Below are positions 3,966 to 19,102 of a stretch of 32,000 nt of DNA, piece by piece. Under the pieces are notes generated by a model. It did not search any database, had not been told where the DNA came from, and saw only the letters and a program-made list of their open reading frames with translations. Numbering within the stretch: position 1 is the first letter of the stretch; the number at the start of each line of letters is the position of its first letter. Both the position numbers and the translations under genes were made by a program. Source of the stretch: Candidatus Thorarchaeota archaeon (GTDB lineage: Archaea > Asgardarchaeota > Thorarchaeia > Thorarchaeales > Thorarchaeaceae); the NCBI GenBank assembly GCA_008080745.1, contig SHMX01000001.1, positions 510,001-542,000 on the forward strand, read 5' to 3'.

Positions 3966-4841
3966 TTATTCCCGTGGCATTCTACTGGCAGCCAATCGTT
4001 CCTTCTCAGAGATGCCTGTTCCAGTCACATCAATTCGTCCCACCGCTCGTAAACGAACCAATGCATGAGGATACGGGTCAAGGTATTCCTCCTCAACATT
4101 ATTCCGTATTGTTGGTTGGATATCACTAAGCCGCTGATAGATGATATTCTTCTCCTCTTCAGAGGTGAAACGTTGATCAATTACCACTGCTACATGAAAT
4201 GAAACTTCTGCATCCCATAGATATTCAACAGCCCGAAATGGAAGATCCATAAATTCCGGCGAACAACCAGTCTTTGCAGTGAACGCTTCAGGAATACCGC
4301 CCCGAATAGACAGTCGAACATGTCCTACAGTATCACCTCTACGAGAGGCATATTGAAATAAACGCTCTGCTAATTCTGGTTCTTGAGAGAGTACAAATCC
4401 ATTGGTTTCAATTACGAAGAGGTCAAACGCGTACCTGTCCCGATGTACCAACTCAAGAATACTACAGAGGTGATCCGTACATAAAGTAGGTTCAGCACCG
4501 CTAATGCGAGCTCTACGGAAATTTCTCTCAGCCATGATAGCTCGAAGTTTAGAATACACTTCTTCTGGCGAGTAGAACTGGCCATATCGCTCTGGCCAAT
4601 CACGACTCCAATCAACCCAGCAAAAAACGCAACGAATGTTGCACCCTACAGAATAGGCAGTAGCAATGCCACCATATACACCTACACCATAGAAGCTCGT
4701 GTATTTTCGTAATGGAATTCCATCAACATTCTTGCAAACCAGTTCACGGGTTCTATTTGTCAGTTGTATTGGATTGATAGGGAATGGAGGAACAAGTCCA
4801 CCGTCAAGGTCTATGGTCGCAAAGCGAATCTCATCGGTCAT
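3966..4841 (-). CDS. Radical SAM protein (archaeal uncharacterised family)
   Basis: CxxxCxxC 'CNIRCVFC', 'ISGAEPTL', 'IETNG'. Confidence 0.85.
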   Translation of the reverse strand: MTDEIRFATIDLDGGLVPPFPINPIQLTNRTRELVCKNVDGIPLRKYTSFYGVGVYGGIATAYSVGCNIRCVFCWVDWSRDWPERYGQFYSPEEVYSKLRAIMAERNFRRARISGAEPTLCTDHLCSILELVHRDRYAFDLFVIETNGFVLSQEPELAERLFQYASRRGDTVGHVRLSIRGGIPEAFTAKTGCSPEFMDLPFRAVEYLWDAEVSFHVAVVIDQRFTSEEEKNIIYQRLSDIQPTIRNNVEEEYLDPYPHALVRLRAVGRIDVTGTGISEKERLAASRMPRE

Positions 4842-12939: not shown

Positions 12940-14310
12940 TCATCTTGCAAAGAATTGCCTATGCACGGACTCTATGGCAGATCGCATCTGATTCTTCTTA
13001 ACAATGAAGTAGTAAGCTACCTCTGATGCACCAGCTGAGAACATCTCAACATTGATTCCTTCAGCTGCAACTGCTGAAAAAACCTTGGCTGCAAGCCCTT
13101 TTGTCGAGAGAAGGCCCTCACCAACTACTGCAATCAATGCAACATCAATTCTAAGTTCAAGTTTTTCTATTACACCTCCAACTAGTGGTTGGAGAGAAGT
13201 CTTGCTTCTAGATGCATCTTTTGCATCGATAATCAGATTGATGCAGGTCTGGGAGGTGATGACGGAATAGATGTTAATTCGCTCTGCAGAGAGATGATCA
13301 CCGATATCACCTATTATACCAGGTTTATGACCAACACCAGCACCATGGATCTTGAGCACTGCAATATCCAAGTTATAGGTGACACTCTTAATCACATCAT
13401 GGTGTTCATGACCATCACATTGAATTAAAGTCCCACGAGAGGAGGGATTATGCACGTTTCGCACAAAGACCTCCGTAAATGTTCCAATTAGTGGTTCGAC
13501 AGTACGGGGATGCAAAACCCTTGCACCAAAATATGACAGTTCGGCTGCTTCCCTATAGGAGAGGGTTTCAATGGGAACAGAGTGTGATACCAATCGTGGA
13601 TCTGCGGTCATAAAGCCATCAACATCTTTCCAGATGTCTATTGTTTTAGCGCCAAGAGCATGAGCAATTACAGATGTGCTATAATCAGACCCATTCCTAC
13701 CAAATGAGGTGACTCTACCTGTTTCTGTACATCCAAAAAAGCCAGTGATAACTGGAATACATCCCTGTTCAAGATATGCAGGAATGCATTCCAGCAAGTT
13801 CATCTTTATAGCTGAGAGATTGGCAGTTGCATTATCATAGCAAGCATCAGTCACAAGCCCAATCTGCTCCGACTCAAGAGATACGGATAGATTTCCATAT
13901 GATCTCAATATTCCTGCCAGAAGAACCGAAGAGAGCCGTTCACCTTGACTTAGTAGGAGAATGCGTATAGGTTCGAATATCTCACCAATATACGCCAGGC
14001 CGTACAATAGCCGTTCAATCTTGTCAAATATCCTATCCAGCTGCTGCGAAGTGTTGTGGTATTCTTCAGGGTCCTGAATTTCACTTGCCGCAATCTCAAA
14101 ATGCTGGTCGCGTAAATCAGTTATGATGGGAGAGATAGCTTCTTCCGAATCAAGTGCTGACTGAGCAGCTGATTCTAGTTTATTGGTCACACCATACACA
14201 GCAGAAACTACCACTATAATGGGGTCTGTGAAGGATTCCAATATGTTTGAAACTCTTCTAAAATCACTGGGCGATCTCAAGCATCCGCCACCAAATTTCA
14301 TAACTCTCAA
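12940..14310 (-). CDS. lysC: Aspartokinase with two C-terminal ACT domains
   Basis: 'MKFGG', 'VVVVSA..G.T', 'GERLSS', 'GR.GSDYS', 'DVDG..TADPR', 'ELSYFGA.VLHP'; TTG start overlaps asd stop. Confidence 0.95.
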   Translation of the reverse strand: MRVMKFGGGCLRSPSDFRRVSNILESFTDPIIVVVSAVYGVTNKLESAAQSALDSEEAISPIITDLRDQHFEIAASEIQDPEEYHNTSQQLDRIFDKIERLLYGLAYIGEIFEPIRILLLSQGERLSSVLLAGILRSYGNLSVSLESEQIGLVTDACYDNATANLSAIKMNLLECIPAYLEQGCIPVITGFFGCTETGRVTSFGRNGSDYSTSVIAHALGAKTIDIWKDVDGFMTADPRLVSHSVPIETLSYREAAELSYFGARVLHPRTVEPLIGTFTEVFVRNVHNPSSRGTLIQCDGHEHHDVIKSVTYNLDIAVLKIHGAGVGHKPGIIGDIGDHLSAERINIYSVITSQTCINLIIDAKDASRSKTSLQPLVGGVIEKLELRIDVALIAVVGEGLLSTKGLAAKVFSAVAAEGINVEMFSAGASEVAYYFIVKKNQMRSAIESVHRQFFAR

Positions 14311-15383
14311 GATTCCACCTCCGATTTTGTAAGATAACCATGAGCAAGAGCGAACTCAGCATTAAGAACGGACGCACCAGCAGCACCTCGAAGGGTGTTA
14401 TGAACAAGGAGAAAGAATGATACTTTTGATCCTCGGACTCTCACACGACCAATTTTAACCCTCATACCCAAATCATCCAAGTCATATGTGAGGTCTCGAC
14501 GAGGTTGGGGACGGTCTTTCTCCGAGAGAAGAAGAATGGGATTTTGTGGAGCAGTGGGTAGATTGATTTCTGAAGTATTCAGCCCCCAAGAATATTCTTT
14601 GAATAGATTCATAGCGGCTTCAGTAGAGATAGATTCGCGTAGGTCTACGACAATGCTCTCAAGATGACCGTCAATAACTGGCACTCGTGCACAGCTGGCG
14701 TGAACTTCAAAGTCACTTGAGAGAATCTTGTTTTCTCTCATTTGGCCAAGAATCTTTCTGGACTCCCATTCCATCTTTTCCTCCTCATTTTCGATATAAG
14801 GAATCACATTTCCTGAAATGTCTAGTGAACTCACTCCATGACGTCCAGCTCCAGAAACTGCCTGATAAGTCGTTACAATAACCTGTTCGATTCCAAAAGT
14901 TAGTAGAGGTTTGAGACCAAAAACTAAACCGGATGTTGAACAGTTGGAATTTGTCACGATGAACCCAGCATAATCCTGATGTTCTATCAAACCAATGTGT
15001 TCAGGATTTATCTCAGGGATAAGAATCGGAACATGAGGGTCTCGTCTGTGAGCGCCAGCATTTGAAAAAACTGGCAATCCATATTGTGCAAGGGTTGTTT
15101 CAAGGGGCCCAGCTATATCACTGGGAAGAGCACTGAATACCAAGTCTAAATTCTGATCTCGTATCCAACCAGGTGTTGATTCGGTGACAATTATATTTCG
15201 GGCGGATTTGGGAATGGACCTTGAAACGACCCAATCCACTGCTGCACTGTATTCTCTACCAGCTGACCGGGAGGATCCTGTTAGTGAGGCCAGATGGAAG
15301 TAAGGATGGTCACCAAGTAGACGAACAAATTGCTGTCCAACCATTCCAGTGGCTCCTAATACTCCAACACGTAACTTATCCAA
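14307..15383 (-). CDS. asd: Aspartate-semialdehyde dehydrogenase (archaeal type)
   Basis: 'VGVLGATGMVGQ', catalytic 'NSNCST', 'QAVSGAG', 'RVPVIDGH', 'HNTLRGAAGA'. Confidence 0.95.
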   Translation of the reverse strand: MDKLRVGVLGATGMVGQQFVRLLGDHPYFHLASLTGSSRSAGREYSAAVDWVVSRSIPKSARNIIVTESTPGWIRDQNLDLVFSALPSDIAGPLETTLAQYGLPVFSNAGAHRRDPHVPILIPEINPEHIGLIEHQDYAGFIVTNSNCSTSGLVFGLKPLLTFGIEQVIVTTYQAVSGAGRHGVSSLDISGNVIPYIENEEEKMEWESRKILGQMRENKILSSDFEVHASCARVPVIDGHLESIVVDLRESISTEAAMNLFKEYSWGLNTSEINLPTAPQNPILLLSEKDRPQPRRDLTYDLDDLGMRVKIGRVRVRGSKVSFFLLVHNTLRGAAGASVLNAEFALAHGYLTKSEVES

Positions 15384-16109
15384 TCATACCACCTCCATAC
15401 CTTGAGAGATGAGAGCATAATCCACATCTGCTCGAACAATGTCTGGTAAATTCCCAGCAGTGCCCACAAGTTCGTCAACAACCACCATTGCACCCTCTAC
15501 TCCACATTCCATAATTGTCCTTAGAGATTGGTTGATGGATTCCCTCATTGGAACACTAACGAGGTTCCCAAGATAGGTTGCAGCGGCATCTGCTAGAGTA
15601 ACATCATCGGAGACCACTATTGATGCATCGCTGATTCCCAGACTAACTGAGTGACCAACTGTTGCTGAAGAGGTACAGATACCAAGAATTGTGTTAGTCA
15701 CAGCGACTTGGAATCCATATTTCGAGGTTATCTGAGATCCAGTATATATTCCAACAATTACGGGTTCTTGAAGATACAATGCAATGTCGCCCCCATTATC
15801 AAATACAATATGATTTGCACCTGCTTCCACCAGAGTATTTACCACTTCATAGGCTATAGCACCAGCTACTGCTGCCATGGGGCCAACTTGTGTCTTCATA
15901 CTCGCCGCTATCATGTGTTTCACAATGGGAGGAGCTGATTCATCCATGGCGATTGGTTGCATAGATGTACGAAACGAGGGATGTTTTTCGATATACTCAG
16001 TAAGAGCAATTCTTGCACTTCGAATTGTCTTTTCAGCAAGAGGGACAAAATCCTTCGCTGTGATGAGTGTGGCATAGGTCTCACCTATACTGATTCGGTA
16101 ACGTTCCAT
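15384..16109 (-). CDS. UPF0280/ApbE-like protein (MA1715-like sulfide assimilation)
   Basis: 'GPMAAVAGAIA', 'DNGGDIA', 'GICTSSATVGHSVSLG.SDA', 'ADAAAT..GN'. Confidence 0.85.
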   Translation of the reverse strand: MERYRISIGETYATLITAKDFVPLAEKTIRSARIALTEYIEKHPSFRTSMQPIAMDESAPPIVKHMIAASMKTQVGPMAAVAGAIAYEVVNTLVEAGANHIVFDNGGDIALYLQEPVIVGIYTGSQITSKYGFQVAVTNTILGICTSSATVGHSVSLGISDASIVVSDDVTLADAAATYLGNLVSVPMRESINQSLRTIMECGVEGAMVVVDELVGTAGNLPDIVRADVDYALISQGMEVV

Positions 16110-16120
16110 TAGACATCACC

Positions 16121-17479
16121 TCAACTCCGAAGATGAATTGCCCCATGAGGACATACATCACCACAGACCCCACATTCCTGACAAAGGGTAGGGTCATAAT
16201 TAACTCGCCATTCTGTATCCCTTCGAAAAACTCCTGCCTCGCAATAAGCAACACATAGACCACACTGAATACAAGCTTCCTCATCTCTATAGACACTCTG
16301 TCCCTCGGGTATGTGGACTACTGATGGTATCGATTCAGAGCCATTTGGTTCTCGTTGTCCCATAGATTTAGCAGAACCATGTGCACAGAGTTTTTGAGCT
16401 GGTTCTGTGAGGAAAAACCTCCCAGTAGCAATCTGTCTCTTTAGCAAACTTGCAATTCGGGATGCCATCCTGAAACTGGATATAGGTGAGGTCTTAACAT
16501 CACGACCGTTCAGTTCAATACATCCTGATTTTAGCTCCTCGTATGTTACCCTTTTTAGGAGTGGACGATTACGTGAGGGGACGCCATAATCAAAGACATT
16601 AGTAACAATATCAACATCAGACACCCCTGTGCTTTTTGCAATATCTTCGTTAAGAATGGGAATTGGAACCCCCACGCCAACAAATAGACTTGTGCCATAG
16701 TTGGTCAGGGATATACCTCTGATGAACTCTGGAGACATTTTCTTAAGGTCTCCTTGAACCATAAGAGTTCCAAACCCACCATCAGGACTGTGTTGTGTGC
16801 CATTTCCAATGATGTAGCTCTCAGTCCCACCCAGAAGTATCCGAGTTCCTATGCCAATAGCACGATAGGATGGGTCATTGATGATGGGGGATAACTCTCC
16901 CGCACCCGAAAAAGTGGCATTGCCCATCTCAGGAAGAAGTTTACCCATATAGGTATAGAGAGTTTTCTCAGTGGAGTTTGTAGCAACACCATATCGTTCG
17001 TAACAATTTCGCGGATTGGATAGAACCGCCTGATTTAGATCATCAAGGGTTATCTCAGTAGAGAGTTCTCTTCGAGGATAGCAATCTGTACCATATGCCT
17101 CTGCCCTAAGTTGGATAGCCTTCCCCTTCAACAAATCTTCAATGACATGACCCCCGCCATATGCCATTCCACGCGATTCAGAAAGTTGTGTAGCACCCAG
17201 ATATGCATCTACCGCAGCAACCCCCGCATATGCTTCAACATCATTCAGCCAGACCTTTGACATTTTCATTGGAGGTTCAGAATGGCCGAAATTCATCCAC
17301 ATTCCCGACGAGCACATAGCACCAAAGGTGCCTGTAGTCACCACATCGACCTCATGAACAGCGCCCTTAGGTCCTAGTTCAGCAACGAGGTCGGACATCT
17401 CAGCAGCTGTGACAACCATCACACTGCCATCTTCTATTCGCTCGTTAATCTCTTGTACTGTCTTTTCGTAACGACTCAT
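16121..17479 (-). CDS. Homocysteine biosynthesis enzyme (DUF39, L-aspartate semialdehyde sulfurtransferase) fused to 2x[4Fe-4S] ferredoxin
   Basis: 'VDVVTTGTFGAMCSSG', 'AAVDAYLGAT', 'GGGHVIEDL', 'NPRN.Y', 'GAGELSP..NDP'; C-terminal CxxCxxCxxxC twice; start re-called at ATG 17479 behind GGAGG. Confidence 0.9.
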   Translation of the reverse strand: MSRYEKTVQEINERIEDGSVMVVTAAEMSDLVAELGPKGAVHEVDVVTTGTFGAMCSSGMWMNFGHSEPPMKMSKVWLNDVEAYAGVAAVDAYLGATQLSESRGMAYGGGHVIEDLLKGKAIQLRAEAYGTDCYPRRELSTEITLDDLNQAVLSNPRNCYERYGVATNSTEKTLYTYMGKLLPEMGNATFSGAGELSPIINDPSYRAIGIGTRILLGGTESYIIGNGTQHSPDGGFGTLMVQGDLKKMSPEFIRGISLTNYGTSLFVGVGVPIPILNEDIAKSTGVSDVDIVTNVFDYGVPSRNRPLLKRVTYEELKSGCIELNGRDVKTSPISSFRMASRIASLLKRQIATGRFFLTEPAQKLCAHGSAKSMGQREPNGSESIPSVVHIPEGQSVYRDEEACIQCGLCVAYCEAGVFRRDTEWRVNYDPTLCQECGVCGDVCPHGAIHLRS

Positions 17480-17482
17480 TTT

Positions 17483-17655
17483 GAGACCTCCACCTCTCAA
17501 GTCAAGAAATACAGAAAGAATACATGCAGAGAAGTCACACCAATCAAGTCAGAAGAGGAAAACTATGCAACGAGATTACCAACTAGGCAATCATTCCCGT
17601 TGATAGACCGTTATGAGGTCTCTGTATGTTTCATTTTCTGTATTCTTTGACTTAA
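17483..17655 (-). promoter_or_regulatory. Structured 5' leader (long imperfect inverted repeat, inner hairpin, anti-RBS segment, 7-codon uORF)
   Basis: Arms 17499-17532 / 17619-17653 pair at ~27 of 34 positions; GAGACCTC 17483-17490 vs GAGGTCTC 17615-17622; function inferred. Confidence 0.55.
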
Positions 17656-17850
17656 TTGGCAAGTGATGGCGAGAAACTTCCCCTTATCAATAATTCCCGA
17701 TGACTCAGAGTATGAGAAGGAGGAATTGAGGTCACAGTTTATAGTCTTTCAAATTATAGAAAATATAATGCACAAATTGCTGTCCTATATGATGGTTTTC
17801 CTATCAGGAGCATAAAACCCAACGAGTGACTTAGTGAGGGAGTCTGAAAA

Positions 17851-18441
17851 TTGAATGAACCTATTCCTCCAGAGGATTTAGAGGAGATAAACAAAGAACT
17901 GGAATATATTCTTGGTACGAATAAATACCAGCTCAGACAAAATATCAAAGATAATGTTCTTGGAGTGTATTTGAATAATCAGCGATCCACATTGATCGAT
18001 GAGATTCCCATTGAGATTTGGGATACATTGAATCGTGAGGAACTAATCACATACATCCTTCAAGTAGCTAATAATCACATCATAGCTCTAAAAACTATGA
18101 GGAGGACTGTTGGAATACCCTTACTAATGATGATTCCAGCTATTCTATTATTCATATTAATATATGATTTATTTCCCGAACCATTCAGGAGGATTGCGGC
18201 ATCTTTGATATCTGTTGCAGTTTGGGGAGTAGCATTCATTCCATTTCTGTATAGAGATTTCATAATCACACAATTCCAAGCAGATAAACTAACTATTTCT
18301 CAGAGGTCTAATCTCATAGAGGTCTATCGAAAGATGGAGGAGCTAACCAAATCCAAGAACAAAGTAGTAAGCTATCGAAGTAGAGTAGGTCGACTAGAAA
18401 AATATCTTCAAACACAGATAGAAATGGAACATGGCATTTGA
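17851..18441 (+). CDS. Hypothetical 2-TM protein, degenerate M48 peptidase-like (paralog 1)
   Basis: TTG start; 'LNREELITYILQVANNH', two TM segments, 'FQAD'. Confidence 0.65.
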   Translation: MNEPIPPEDLEEINKELEYILGTNKYQLRQNIKDNVLGVYLNNQRSTLIDEIPIEIWDTLNREELITYILQVANNHIIALKTMRRTVGIPLLMMIPAILLFILIYDLFPEPFRRIAASLISVAVWGVAFIPFLYRDFIITQFQADKLTISQRSNLIEVYRKMEELTKSKNKVVSYRSRVGRLEKYLQTQIEMEHGI

Positions 18442-18541: not shown

Positions 18542-19102
18542 ATGGAATCAGGAGATGAGAAAGAAAAGAGAGCTTCATGGTTAGACAAGGAATTAGAAAG
18601 AGTCTTGGAAACAAATCGATTTACCATTGATTATAGACCTCAAAGAAGAGGATACGTATTCTCTACAACTACAGACAAGGGCTATCAATGGAGAAAATTC
18701 ATCGAAGAAGAAACCCTGGATATATTTAACGATGAAGAAGCCTTAACCTACGTAGTTCAAATTGCCACTAGATTTACTGCACCAGGAGAAATAGGGCTCT
18801 CTATGAAACGGTTCGCAACCGCCATGATAGGTTTCTTTGTCTTTGCATCAATAACCTATATTCTTACTCCAGTACTAATACCTCGACAAATCTCGGTTTA
18901 TTTTTCTGTAGTTGGGTATCTCCCAGTTTTTGCTTTGTTGATAGCCAAAGATAGAAGGAGAAGAAGATATGAAGCGGACATCGAAGCACATCGTTTCAGA
19001 AAAGATCTCCCTCAAGTGCTCCTAAAGTTAATAATTCATACAGATTCACCGAGAGAAAAAGCTAACTTGGAAAGAAGGTTGGACAAGCTAAGAGAACGGT
19101 GA
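18542..19102 (+). CDS. Hypothetical 2-TM protein, degenerate M48 peptidase-like (paralog 2)
   Basis: 'KELERVLETNRF' vs 'KELEYILGTNKY' upstream; 'FNDEEALTYVVQIA', two TM, 'RRYEAD..A...DL..VL.KL'. Confidence 0.65.
   Translation: MESGDEKEKRASWLDKELERVLETNRFTIDYRPQRRGYVFSTTTDKGYQWRKFIEEETLDIFNDEEALTYVVQIATRFTAPGEIGLSMKRFATAMIGFFVFASITYILTPVLIPRQISVYFSVVGYLPVFALLIAKDRRRRRYEADIEAHRFRKDLPQVLLKLIIHTDSPREKANLERRLDKLRER

Follow-up and report, generated by a model that had tools for sequence, protein, structure and literature searches.

A conserved folded leader with two mutually exclusive, co-varying helices precedes the homocysteine operon of Thorarchaeota

Gene Organization of the Locus

The window analysed in this work, a 32,000-nt stretch of DNA from a marine-sediment Thorarchaeota metagenome-assembled genome (MAG), carries on its minus strand a four-gene operon (12940-17479) whose gene order, assigned by Pfam and NCBIfam searches, is HcyBio-Fd, COG2122 (UPF0280), asd and ACT-domain aspartate kinase. 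Among sequencing runs, the locus occurs in two DNA runs of one marine-sediment study and in no listed RNA run. The first gene (16121-17479, minus strand; Pfam and NCBIfam) encodes a HcyBio (DUF39)-ferredoxin fusion consisting of the HcyBio domain (DUF39, PF01837) and two 4Fe-4S motifs, with no CBS domain. A preliminary description of this DNA had remarked that the enzyme lacks the CBS domains of its methanogen homologues, and both the domain search and the comparison with Methanococcoides agreed with that remark: the Methanococcoides homologue contains HcyBio and two CBS domains, while its ferredoxin is encoded by a separate gene. The operon encodes a sulfide-dependent route from aspartate semialdehyde to homocysteine, which is known from methanogens and Desulfovibrio (PMC5764234).

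The gene order of the HcyBio-Fd operon is kept in every orthologous locus and the upstream neighbour gene varies among genomes; an extended gap precedes the operon in all loci. The gene was detected in 15 of the 86 species genomes of the family, which effectively represents the whole class, and one of the 15 has two copies; in this genome (G085) each operon copy has its own leader (L033 and L034). The distribution of the operon within the family is patchy, and a search of the only other genome from the genus of the window did not detect it. Outside Thorarchaeota, the nearest homologues bearing the same fusion are mostly bacterial (Aminicenantes, Planctomycetota and Clostridia), with one Heimdallarchaeote. 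The overall pattern suggests a lateral transfer of the fusion operon.

An intergenic gap of 371 bp separates the start of the HcyBio-Fd gene at 17479 from a divergent plus-strand ORF at 17851. This ORF (17851-18441, plus strand, 196 aa) and the following one (18542-19102, plus strand, 186 aa) returned no Pfam or NCBIfam match, and neither was found beside the operon in any orthologous locus. The region investigated here lies within the gap, directly upstream of the operon.

Promoter and Predicted Transcription Start

The upstream regions of the orthologous loci share a promoter with a fixed layout, namely TCATACTCGGAAAC-TTCGGGAA, a spacer of 3-5 nt, TTATATA, about 22 nt and TTGCCAA. The upstream element, whose family consensus is TCATACTCGGAAAC-TTCGGGAA, was aligned in 14 of the 16 orthologous loci; in the window it reads TCATACTCTGAGTCATCGGGAA (17694-17715, minus strand), contains two TCGGRAA half-sites and, from its sequence, looks like a transcription-factor site. 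A TATA-like box follows (TTGATAA, 17684-17690, minus strand; TTATATA in most orthologues). As the usual archaeal distance between TATA box and start points to the G of the conserved TTGCCAA, the transcription start was predicted by promoter alignment at 17660 (minus strand), 27 nt from the centre of the box, and the spacing from the box to the predicted start is 22-23 nt in all loci. The resulting leader would be 181 nt long. Since the promoter is located 180-250 nt before the ATG in 14 of the 16 species-level orthologous loci, a long leader is a trait of the family. The preliminary description had made its reading depend on a start not lying downstream of 17600, and the predicted start lies upstream of that position. 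We predict that the region forms the 181-nt leader at the 5' end of the HcyBio-Fd/COG2122/asd/aspartate-kinase mRNA in Thorarchaeota.

The 22-nt promoter element (TCATACTCKGAAACWTCGGRNA) together with the TATA box is present in about two copies per genome. The second copy of the element precedes the gene of the radical-SAM tetraether lipid synthase Tes (NCBIfam NF045702, 638 bits) and is located at G000:C1:310015-310036 (minus strand), corresponding to positions 4516-4537 of L123, with counterparts in L124, L125, L130, L131 and L133. The pairing of Tes and HcyBio promoters was seen in the window genome and in all five relatives searched. On this sequence evidence the HcyBio operon and Tes look like a two-promoter regulon of one transcription factor, and the shared element suggests a common factor acting on top of control at the RNA level. 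The Tes leaders, about 75 nt in length, contain a near-invariant hairpin, GAAUACCACCCUGUUCAGUGGUGGU, which begins at about the predicted transcription start (L123, about 4440-4490, minus strand; also L124, L125, L130, L131 and L133); this 5'-proximal hairpin may represent a second conserved leader element of the lineage.

Fold of the Leader in the Window

The sense RNA of the region (201 nt) folded with a minimum energy of -65.6 kcal/mol, compared with -44.5 ± 3.9 kcal/mol for dinucleotide shuffles (z = -5.46), none of the 200 shuffles being as good, while the opposite strand of the same 201 nt folded more weakly (-51.4 kcal/mol, z = -2.96). The full window leader returned a value of -65.9 kcal/mol with a z-score of -5.13.

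Three strands define the architecture of the leader. Strand S (leader nt 1-43; 17618-17660, minus strand) is A-rich and provides the 5' strand common to both alternative helices; at the sequence level, conservation is seen in its first 10 nt (GCCA-n-GAA). Strand X (…GUUUUCCUCUUCUGACUUGAUUGGUG; 17539-17563, minus strand; repeats I5 and D5) is an internal complement of nt 1-28 of S. Strand Y (nt 128-169; 17492-17533, minus strand) is the second complement of S, with which it forms a rod of 36 bp that ends at the Shine-Dalgarno sequence (SD). The latter, GGAGG (17487-17491, minus strand), is located 7 nt 5' of the ATG and is kept in all orthologues in the form (U)AGGAGG(U). The relationship between the two complements is apparent from direct repeat D5, composed of CACCAATCAAGTCA (17538-17551) and CACCTCTCAAGTCA (17491-17504), both of which are complementary to the 5' end of the leader (I5).

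The individual elements drawn in the preliminary description were all retrieved. The outer stem, proposed between 17653-17619 and 17532-17499, is present, also as inverted repeats I1 and I2, and can be extended to 17660/17492, resulting in 36 pairs and about -40 kcal/mol (RNAduplex). The inner hairpin GAUUGCC/GGUAAUC, stacked on CAACGG/UCGUUG and CUAU/AUAG, corresponds to the minimum-energy fold; the whole apical hairpin, CAACGGG-AAUG-AUUGC CUAGU UGGUAAU-CUCGUUG (17568-17602, minus strand), occurs in both alternative folds, and its sequence is not conserved in orthologues. The third hairpin, AGACC/GGUCU, was found as a small GACCU...GGUC hairpin (17605-17621, minus strand) in the fold of a 127-nt truncated transcript, and it forms only with S paired to X. 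The octamer GAGACCUC (17616-17623, minus strand; repeat I3), a candidate anti-SD specific to the window, is indeed the exact complement of GAGGUCUC (17483-17490), which overlaps the GGAGG ribosome-binding site; it is unpaired in the X state and overlaps the top of the rod and the small hairpin. The upstream ORF MKHTETS* (17611-17634, minus strand) exists as well, lacks an SD and is not conserved.

A Co-Varying Rod between the 5' End and the Shine-Dalgarno Sequence

Leaders were compared across the 16 species-level orthologous loci and two metagenome loci (n = 18). Class-level and metagenome searches returned such leaders in one family only, plus the near-duplicates L035 and L036. Apart from the GCCA-n-GAA 5' end and the SD, the leaders are unalignable across genera, and MAFFT combined with RNAalifold gave no consensus structure for the whole set. 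Because the sequences are too divergent for that approach, alignment-free comparisons of cognate versus swapped duplex energies were used, so that covariation refers here to our own permutation tests and not to R-scape on a curated structural alignment.

In the family, strand S comprises nt 1-45 (41% A) and strand Y 40-55 nt (41% U), Y ending 1-4 nt before the SD. The S:Y rod was found in 18 of 18 leaders with 22-36 pairs: 26-36 in 16 of them and 22-23 in L010 and L013, which fit poorly and have uncertain anchors. Thirteen of the 18 rods begin at nt 1-2 and adjoin the SD, despite their unrelated sequences. For 10 lineage representatives, the cognate S:Y energies summed to -293.9 kcal/mol, against -190.3 ± 16.1 kcal/mol for permuted partners, and none of 200,000 permutations in which partners were swapped between lineages attained the observed energy. 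This test, which answers the covariation check proposed in the preliminary description, identifies the outer stem in the window as the local version of a family-wide co-varying helix. The window rod is the most perfect of the family, the whole-leader z-scores of the other members ranging from +0.2 to -3.9.

A preference of the G-U pairs for the mRNA strand had also been proposed. Throughout the family the rods are stronger in the sense orientation (energy sums of -503 kcal/mol sense versus -422 kcal/mol antisense), with 63 of 560 pairs being G-U, and in 14 of 16 leaders the sense strand, folded as a whole, also reaches a lower minimum energy than the antisense strand. Together, the G-U pairs and the stronger sense-strand rods indicate selection on the mRNA strand. 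For the window rod alone the two orientations gave -39.3 (sense) and -38.5 kcal/mol (antisense).

Pairing between the pre-SD segment and upstream sequence was also scanned at other DUF39 loci, and this crude scan, which has low power owing to the A-rich/U-rich composition and serves only as a loose control, gave mean z-scores of -1.4 for Thorarchaeota, +0.6 for methanogens and -0.5 for bacteria. Two Planctomycetota loci (L152 and L154) showed pre-SD/upstream pairing of -51 and -53 kcal/mol, with z about -4, in the 330 nt upstream of DUF39-Fd; they have no Rfam match and may carry an unrelated structured leader.

A Second Co-Varying Helix Competing for Strand S

When the window transcript was cut before Y (127 nt), nt 1-17 and 23-28 paired with X (-39.0 kcal/mol, z = -4.56). 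Truncation before Y had the same outcome in the family, with nt 1-14 pairing an internal segment near the 3' end in 15 of 18 leaders; this segment lies 6-25 nt upstream of Y in most lineages. The cognate S:X energies summed to -155.0 kcal/mol, against -121.3 ± 8.1 kcal/mol for derangements, and 1 of 36,625 derangements attained the cognate value. A compensatory pair was identified in S:X, with U10:A in L025 and C10:G in L026 and L030, and RNAalifold applied to one clade independently selected an S:X-type helix.

Since X and Y are tandem, U-rich complements of the same strand, pairing of S with one excludes pairing with the other. The two states lie close in energy: rod and X state differ by -12 to +10 kcal/mol, depending on the leader. 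The window value is -10.8 kcal/mol, in favour of the rod, and in 6 of the 18 leaders the X state equals or exceeds the rod in stability. In L010 the minimum-energy fold is the S:X state. As both helices co-vary and are mutually exclusive, the leader is a three-strand system in which S pairs either X or Y. The preliminary description had anticipated mutually exclusive folds, and alternatives do exist; the conserved pair, however, is S:X versus S:Y and not GAGACCUC versus the ribosome-binding site. A U•A-U triple helix of S, X and Y was excluded by geometry, X and Y being direct and not mirror repeats.

Neither state hides the SD consistently, its accessibility varying among the full-length folds, and free Y occludes the SD no more than shuffled Y (mean unpaired 0.32 versus 0.31). 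The sequence thus gives no indication of the functional output.

Comparison with Known RNA Elements

The leader of the window has no Rfam match at E ≤ 10, and the orthologous loci returned nothing at gathering score (17 loci) or at E ≤ 1 (9 loci). No match at gathering score was obtained for the nearest bacterial, Heimdall and other DUF39-Fd loci. The families covered by these searches include SAM-I to SAM-VI, SAM/SAH, lysine and T-box; the preliminary description had itself been unable to match the element to SAM-I, lysine or T-box consensus. A T-box leader was discarded specifically: there was no RF00230 match, and neither the conserved 14-nt T-box sequence nor a terminator was seen in the leaders.

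The interior between S and X ranges, according to lineage, from one hairpin (window, 86 nt) to five, with a length of 80-140 nt retained in every lineage. Interior 8-mers with up to 1 mismatch were no more common to the lineages than in shuffles. Of the features expected of a riboswitch, mutually exclusive alternative pairings are present (S:X versus S:Y, within about ±10 kcal/mol), while neither the 8-mers nor the architecture revealed a conserved ligand-binding core. The absence of such a core and the variation from one to five hairpins argue against a classical aptamer, and the suggestion that the RNA senses SAM, methionine, threonine or lysine found no support.

The proposed switch of GAGACCUC against the ribosome-binding site turned out to be specific to this genome, most orthologous leaders having no CCUC/CUCC anti-SD; such a motif occurs in the corresponding part of S in 4 of about 11 lineages only. 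Its suggested reader, the uORF, is conserved among lineages neither in position nor in sequence nor in SD: no uORF with an SD was found, window included, except for two frames, which belong to leaders of uncertain anchoring (L010 and L013). A leader-peptide attenuator or Met-codon leader peptide was excluded, the uORFs being different in every lineage.

Further candidates were considered and rejected. An intron of the archaeal splicing endonuclease in the 5' UTR is not supported, as the bulge-helix-bulge motif (3-nt bulge/4-bp helix/3-nt bulge) occurs in the rod as often as in shuffles. Intrinsic termination at the U-tracts of Y was dismissed because runs of at least five U occur in few leaders and are absent from the window. 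Inspection by eye for C/D-box or k-turn motifs revealed AUGA/CUGA-like words scattered at non-conserved positions, and no conserved antisense ORF runs across the leader. Finally, the preliminary description had noted that an element occurring at many unrelated loci would be a MITE. The element is single-copy in the 3.16-Mb genome, the next-best match being 17 nt long (E 0.14), and is hence not a repeat of this kind. We conclude that it is a genuine, conserved, folded cis-leader of the homocysteine operon.

An RNase III-Domain Protein in the Lineage

RNase III is uncommon in archaea. One protein of the window genome, 224 aa long, carries an RNase III catalytic domain in its C-terminal part (PF14622 and PF00636, both above cut-off; G000:C10:67032-67334, minus strand; L135, 1501-2172), the N-terminal half having no assignment; no dsRNA-binding domain was detected in this protein. 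A search of 24 family genomes returned RNase III-domain matches at E ≤ 1e-5 in 21, and elsewhere in the phylum few genomes have homologues. The domain scored above the Pfam cut-off in 20 of 41 relatives searched. Duplexes of 26-36 bp, more than two helical turns, belong to the size class of RNase III substrates. Two features of RNase III-processed leaders thus coincide here, a duplex of at least about 20 bp (the 36-pair rod of the window) and an RNase III-domain gene in the host, and the rod is a candidate substrate for this lineage-wide enzyme.

Discussion

The reading that we prefer, to which we attach roughly even confidence, is that the leader acts in cis as a three-strand folding switch and thereby controls translation and/or the fate of the mRNA. 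In the nascent RNA, S would pair X first and close a compact domain around the variable apical hairpins, leaving about 45 nt before the ribosome-binding site single-stranded. Once transcribed, Y would invade from the part of S that is free of X and zip into a rod of 26-36 bp spanning the transcript from its 5' end to the base adjoining the SD; Y can displace X because, being longer, it also matches the stretch of S not covered by X. The state that wins would determine the fate of the message, through ribosome access beside a long duplex, an exposed U-rich single strand and/or cutting by the RNase III-domain nuclease. Candidates for the trigger, should there be one, are folding kinetics, a protein or a ligand.

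X might, on the other hand, play no part in switching and be no more than an intermediate of folding or a duplicate of Y in decay. This would be its place if S:Y alone were functional, the rod acting constitutively, either to stabilise the 5' end beside a strong SD or to offer the RNase III-domain protein a processing site, with X assisting folding transiently or being left over from a duplication. We consider this explanation unlikely on balance, though it deserves serious attention. It accounts well for a strongly co-varying helix that, in almost every leader, extends from nt 1 as far as the base preceding the SD and falls, at 26-36 bp, in the size class of RNase III substrates, for the advantage of about 11 kcal/mol of the window rod over the X state, and for the inconsistent effect of both states on the SD; the co-regulated Tes leader likewise opens with a 5'-proximal hairpin. 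The presence of an RNase III-domain gene in the lineage makes it more plausible, but the encoded protein has no recognisable dsRNA-binding domain. What tells most against it is X itself: a relic would have decayed, yet X co-varies with S (1/36,625), and the X state is at least equally stable in 6 of 18 leaders. Nor does a stabiliser need an interior of 80-140 nt, which all lineages retain.

The same interior weighs against a classical metabolite riboswitch, in which SAM, SAH, methionine, homocysteine or a compound related to these would bind an aptamer formed by the domain that S:X closes, locking S:X and blocking Y. A P1-like closing helix sharing its strand with a competing downstream helix, in front of a methionine-pathway gene without the CBS domains of the methanogen homologues, is what such a riboswitch would look like. 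The cores of known riboswitches, however, are near-invariant at comparable divergence, and a near-invariant core would be expected at the 61-71% protein identity of this family, where no interior 8-mer is common to the lineages above shuffles, the hairpins number one to five and Rfam gave no match (E ≤ 10 in the window, E ≤ 1 in nine orthologous loci); we regard this explanation as improbable. Still less can be said for the model in which GAGACCUC in S pairs GAGGUCUC over the ribosome-binding site when the outer stem is open, with translation of the MKHTETS uORF choosing the fold. The exact 8-nt complementarity, the overlap with the rod top and the small hairpin, and the unpaired state of the octamer in the X state, from which it could reach the SD in this genome, are in its favour; most orthologous leaders lack CCUC/CUCC (4 of about 11 lineages have one), the uORFs differ by lineage and an SD accompanies only the two L010/L013 frames. 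The model is contradicted as a family feature and is very improbable for the leader. An origin at the DNA level, as a MITE or foldback element, a palindrome maintained by arm-to-arm conversion or a set of transcription-factor operators with no RNA function, we find hardly credible. S does begin at the promoter, where the conserved GCCA-n-GAA could overlap an operator, and the window rod is nearly equal on the antisense strand (-38.5 versus -39.3 kcal/mol), but the element is present once in 3.16 Mb and always at the same gene with differing upstream neighbours, its arms are wholly different among lineages and yet complementary to two partners, and the G-U content and sense-strand bias point to RNA.

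The three-strand arrangement resembles that of riboswitch platforms and attenuators such as the purine and SAM-I riboswitches, in which one strand has two exclusive partners, the one made first closing a multi-hairpin domain and the later, longer one adjoining the ribosome-binding site; here S co-varies with both. The Thorarchaeota leader differs in having no ligand core, Rfam match, terminator or consistent sequestration of the SD, in that the shared strand is the extreme 5' end and in that the competing helix is a rod of 26-36 bp. Long 5'-UTR hairpins processed by RNase III are known from the S. aureus cspA leader and the E. coli rnc and pnp leaders. They share with the rod a long imperfect duplex of more than two turns directly upstream of the ribosome-binding site, in lineages that, like the Thorarchaeota, encode an RNase III-domain protein, and in one bacterial case, the S. 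aureus met T-box leader, RNase III cleaves the leader of a methionine-pathway operon (PMC7913692). The bacterial leaders have no second partner strand, whereas the Thorarchaeota system has an archaeal host and a nuclease without a recognisable dsRNA-binding domain, for which the rod is a candidate substrate.

Among archaea, the large 5'-UTR leaders of Methanosarcina mazei mtaA1 and mtaC1B1 stabilise their mRNAs. They are similar in being unusually long (about 200 nt or more), structured and post-transcriptional in action, but no three-strand architecture or covariation has been described for them, and they belong to other genes in another phylum. The hok-type fold-back (fbi/tac) offers a parallel in which the 5' end pairs a near element and later a distal one, the co-transcriptional order setting the state; hok, however, is a bacterial toxin-antitoxin system with 5'-3' pairing over the whole mRNA and 3' processing, and there is no homology.

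To our knowledge, cis-regulatory RNAs are barely known in archaea, and a literature search and Rfam returned none described for Asgard archaea, so that a three-strand archaeal regulatory leader is apparently undescribed so far. The boldest interpretation, which we put forward tentatively and consider rather unlikely, is that the S/X/Y leader is the first Asgard regulatory RNA switch, responding to a methionine- or sulfur-related signal and controlling the sulfide-dependent homocysteine pathway; sensing would be direct or would occur via a protein or an RNase III-type nuclease, and the sensor would be a shape and not a sequence core.

In this methionine-precursor operon the CBS domains have been lost, and a long leader with two co-evolving exclusive helices is present instead. 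Because the leader is defined by its architecture and has no conserved sequence, screens based on motifs or covariance models miss it, which suggests that other shape-only leaders could be detectable by alignment-free partner-swap tests. For the study of post-transcriptional control, the leader offers a concrete case, open to testing, in the prokaryotes most closely related to eukaryotes.
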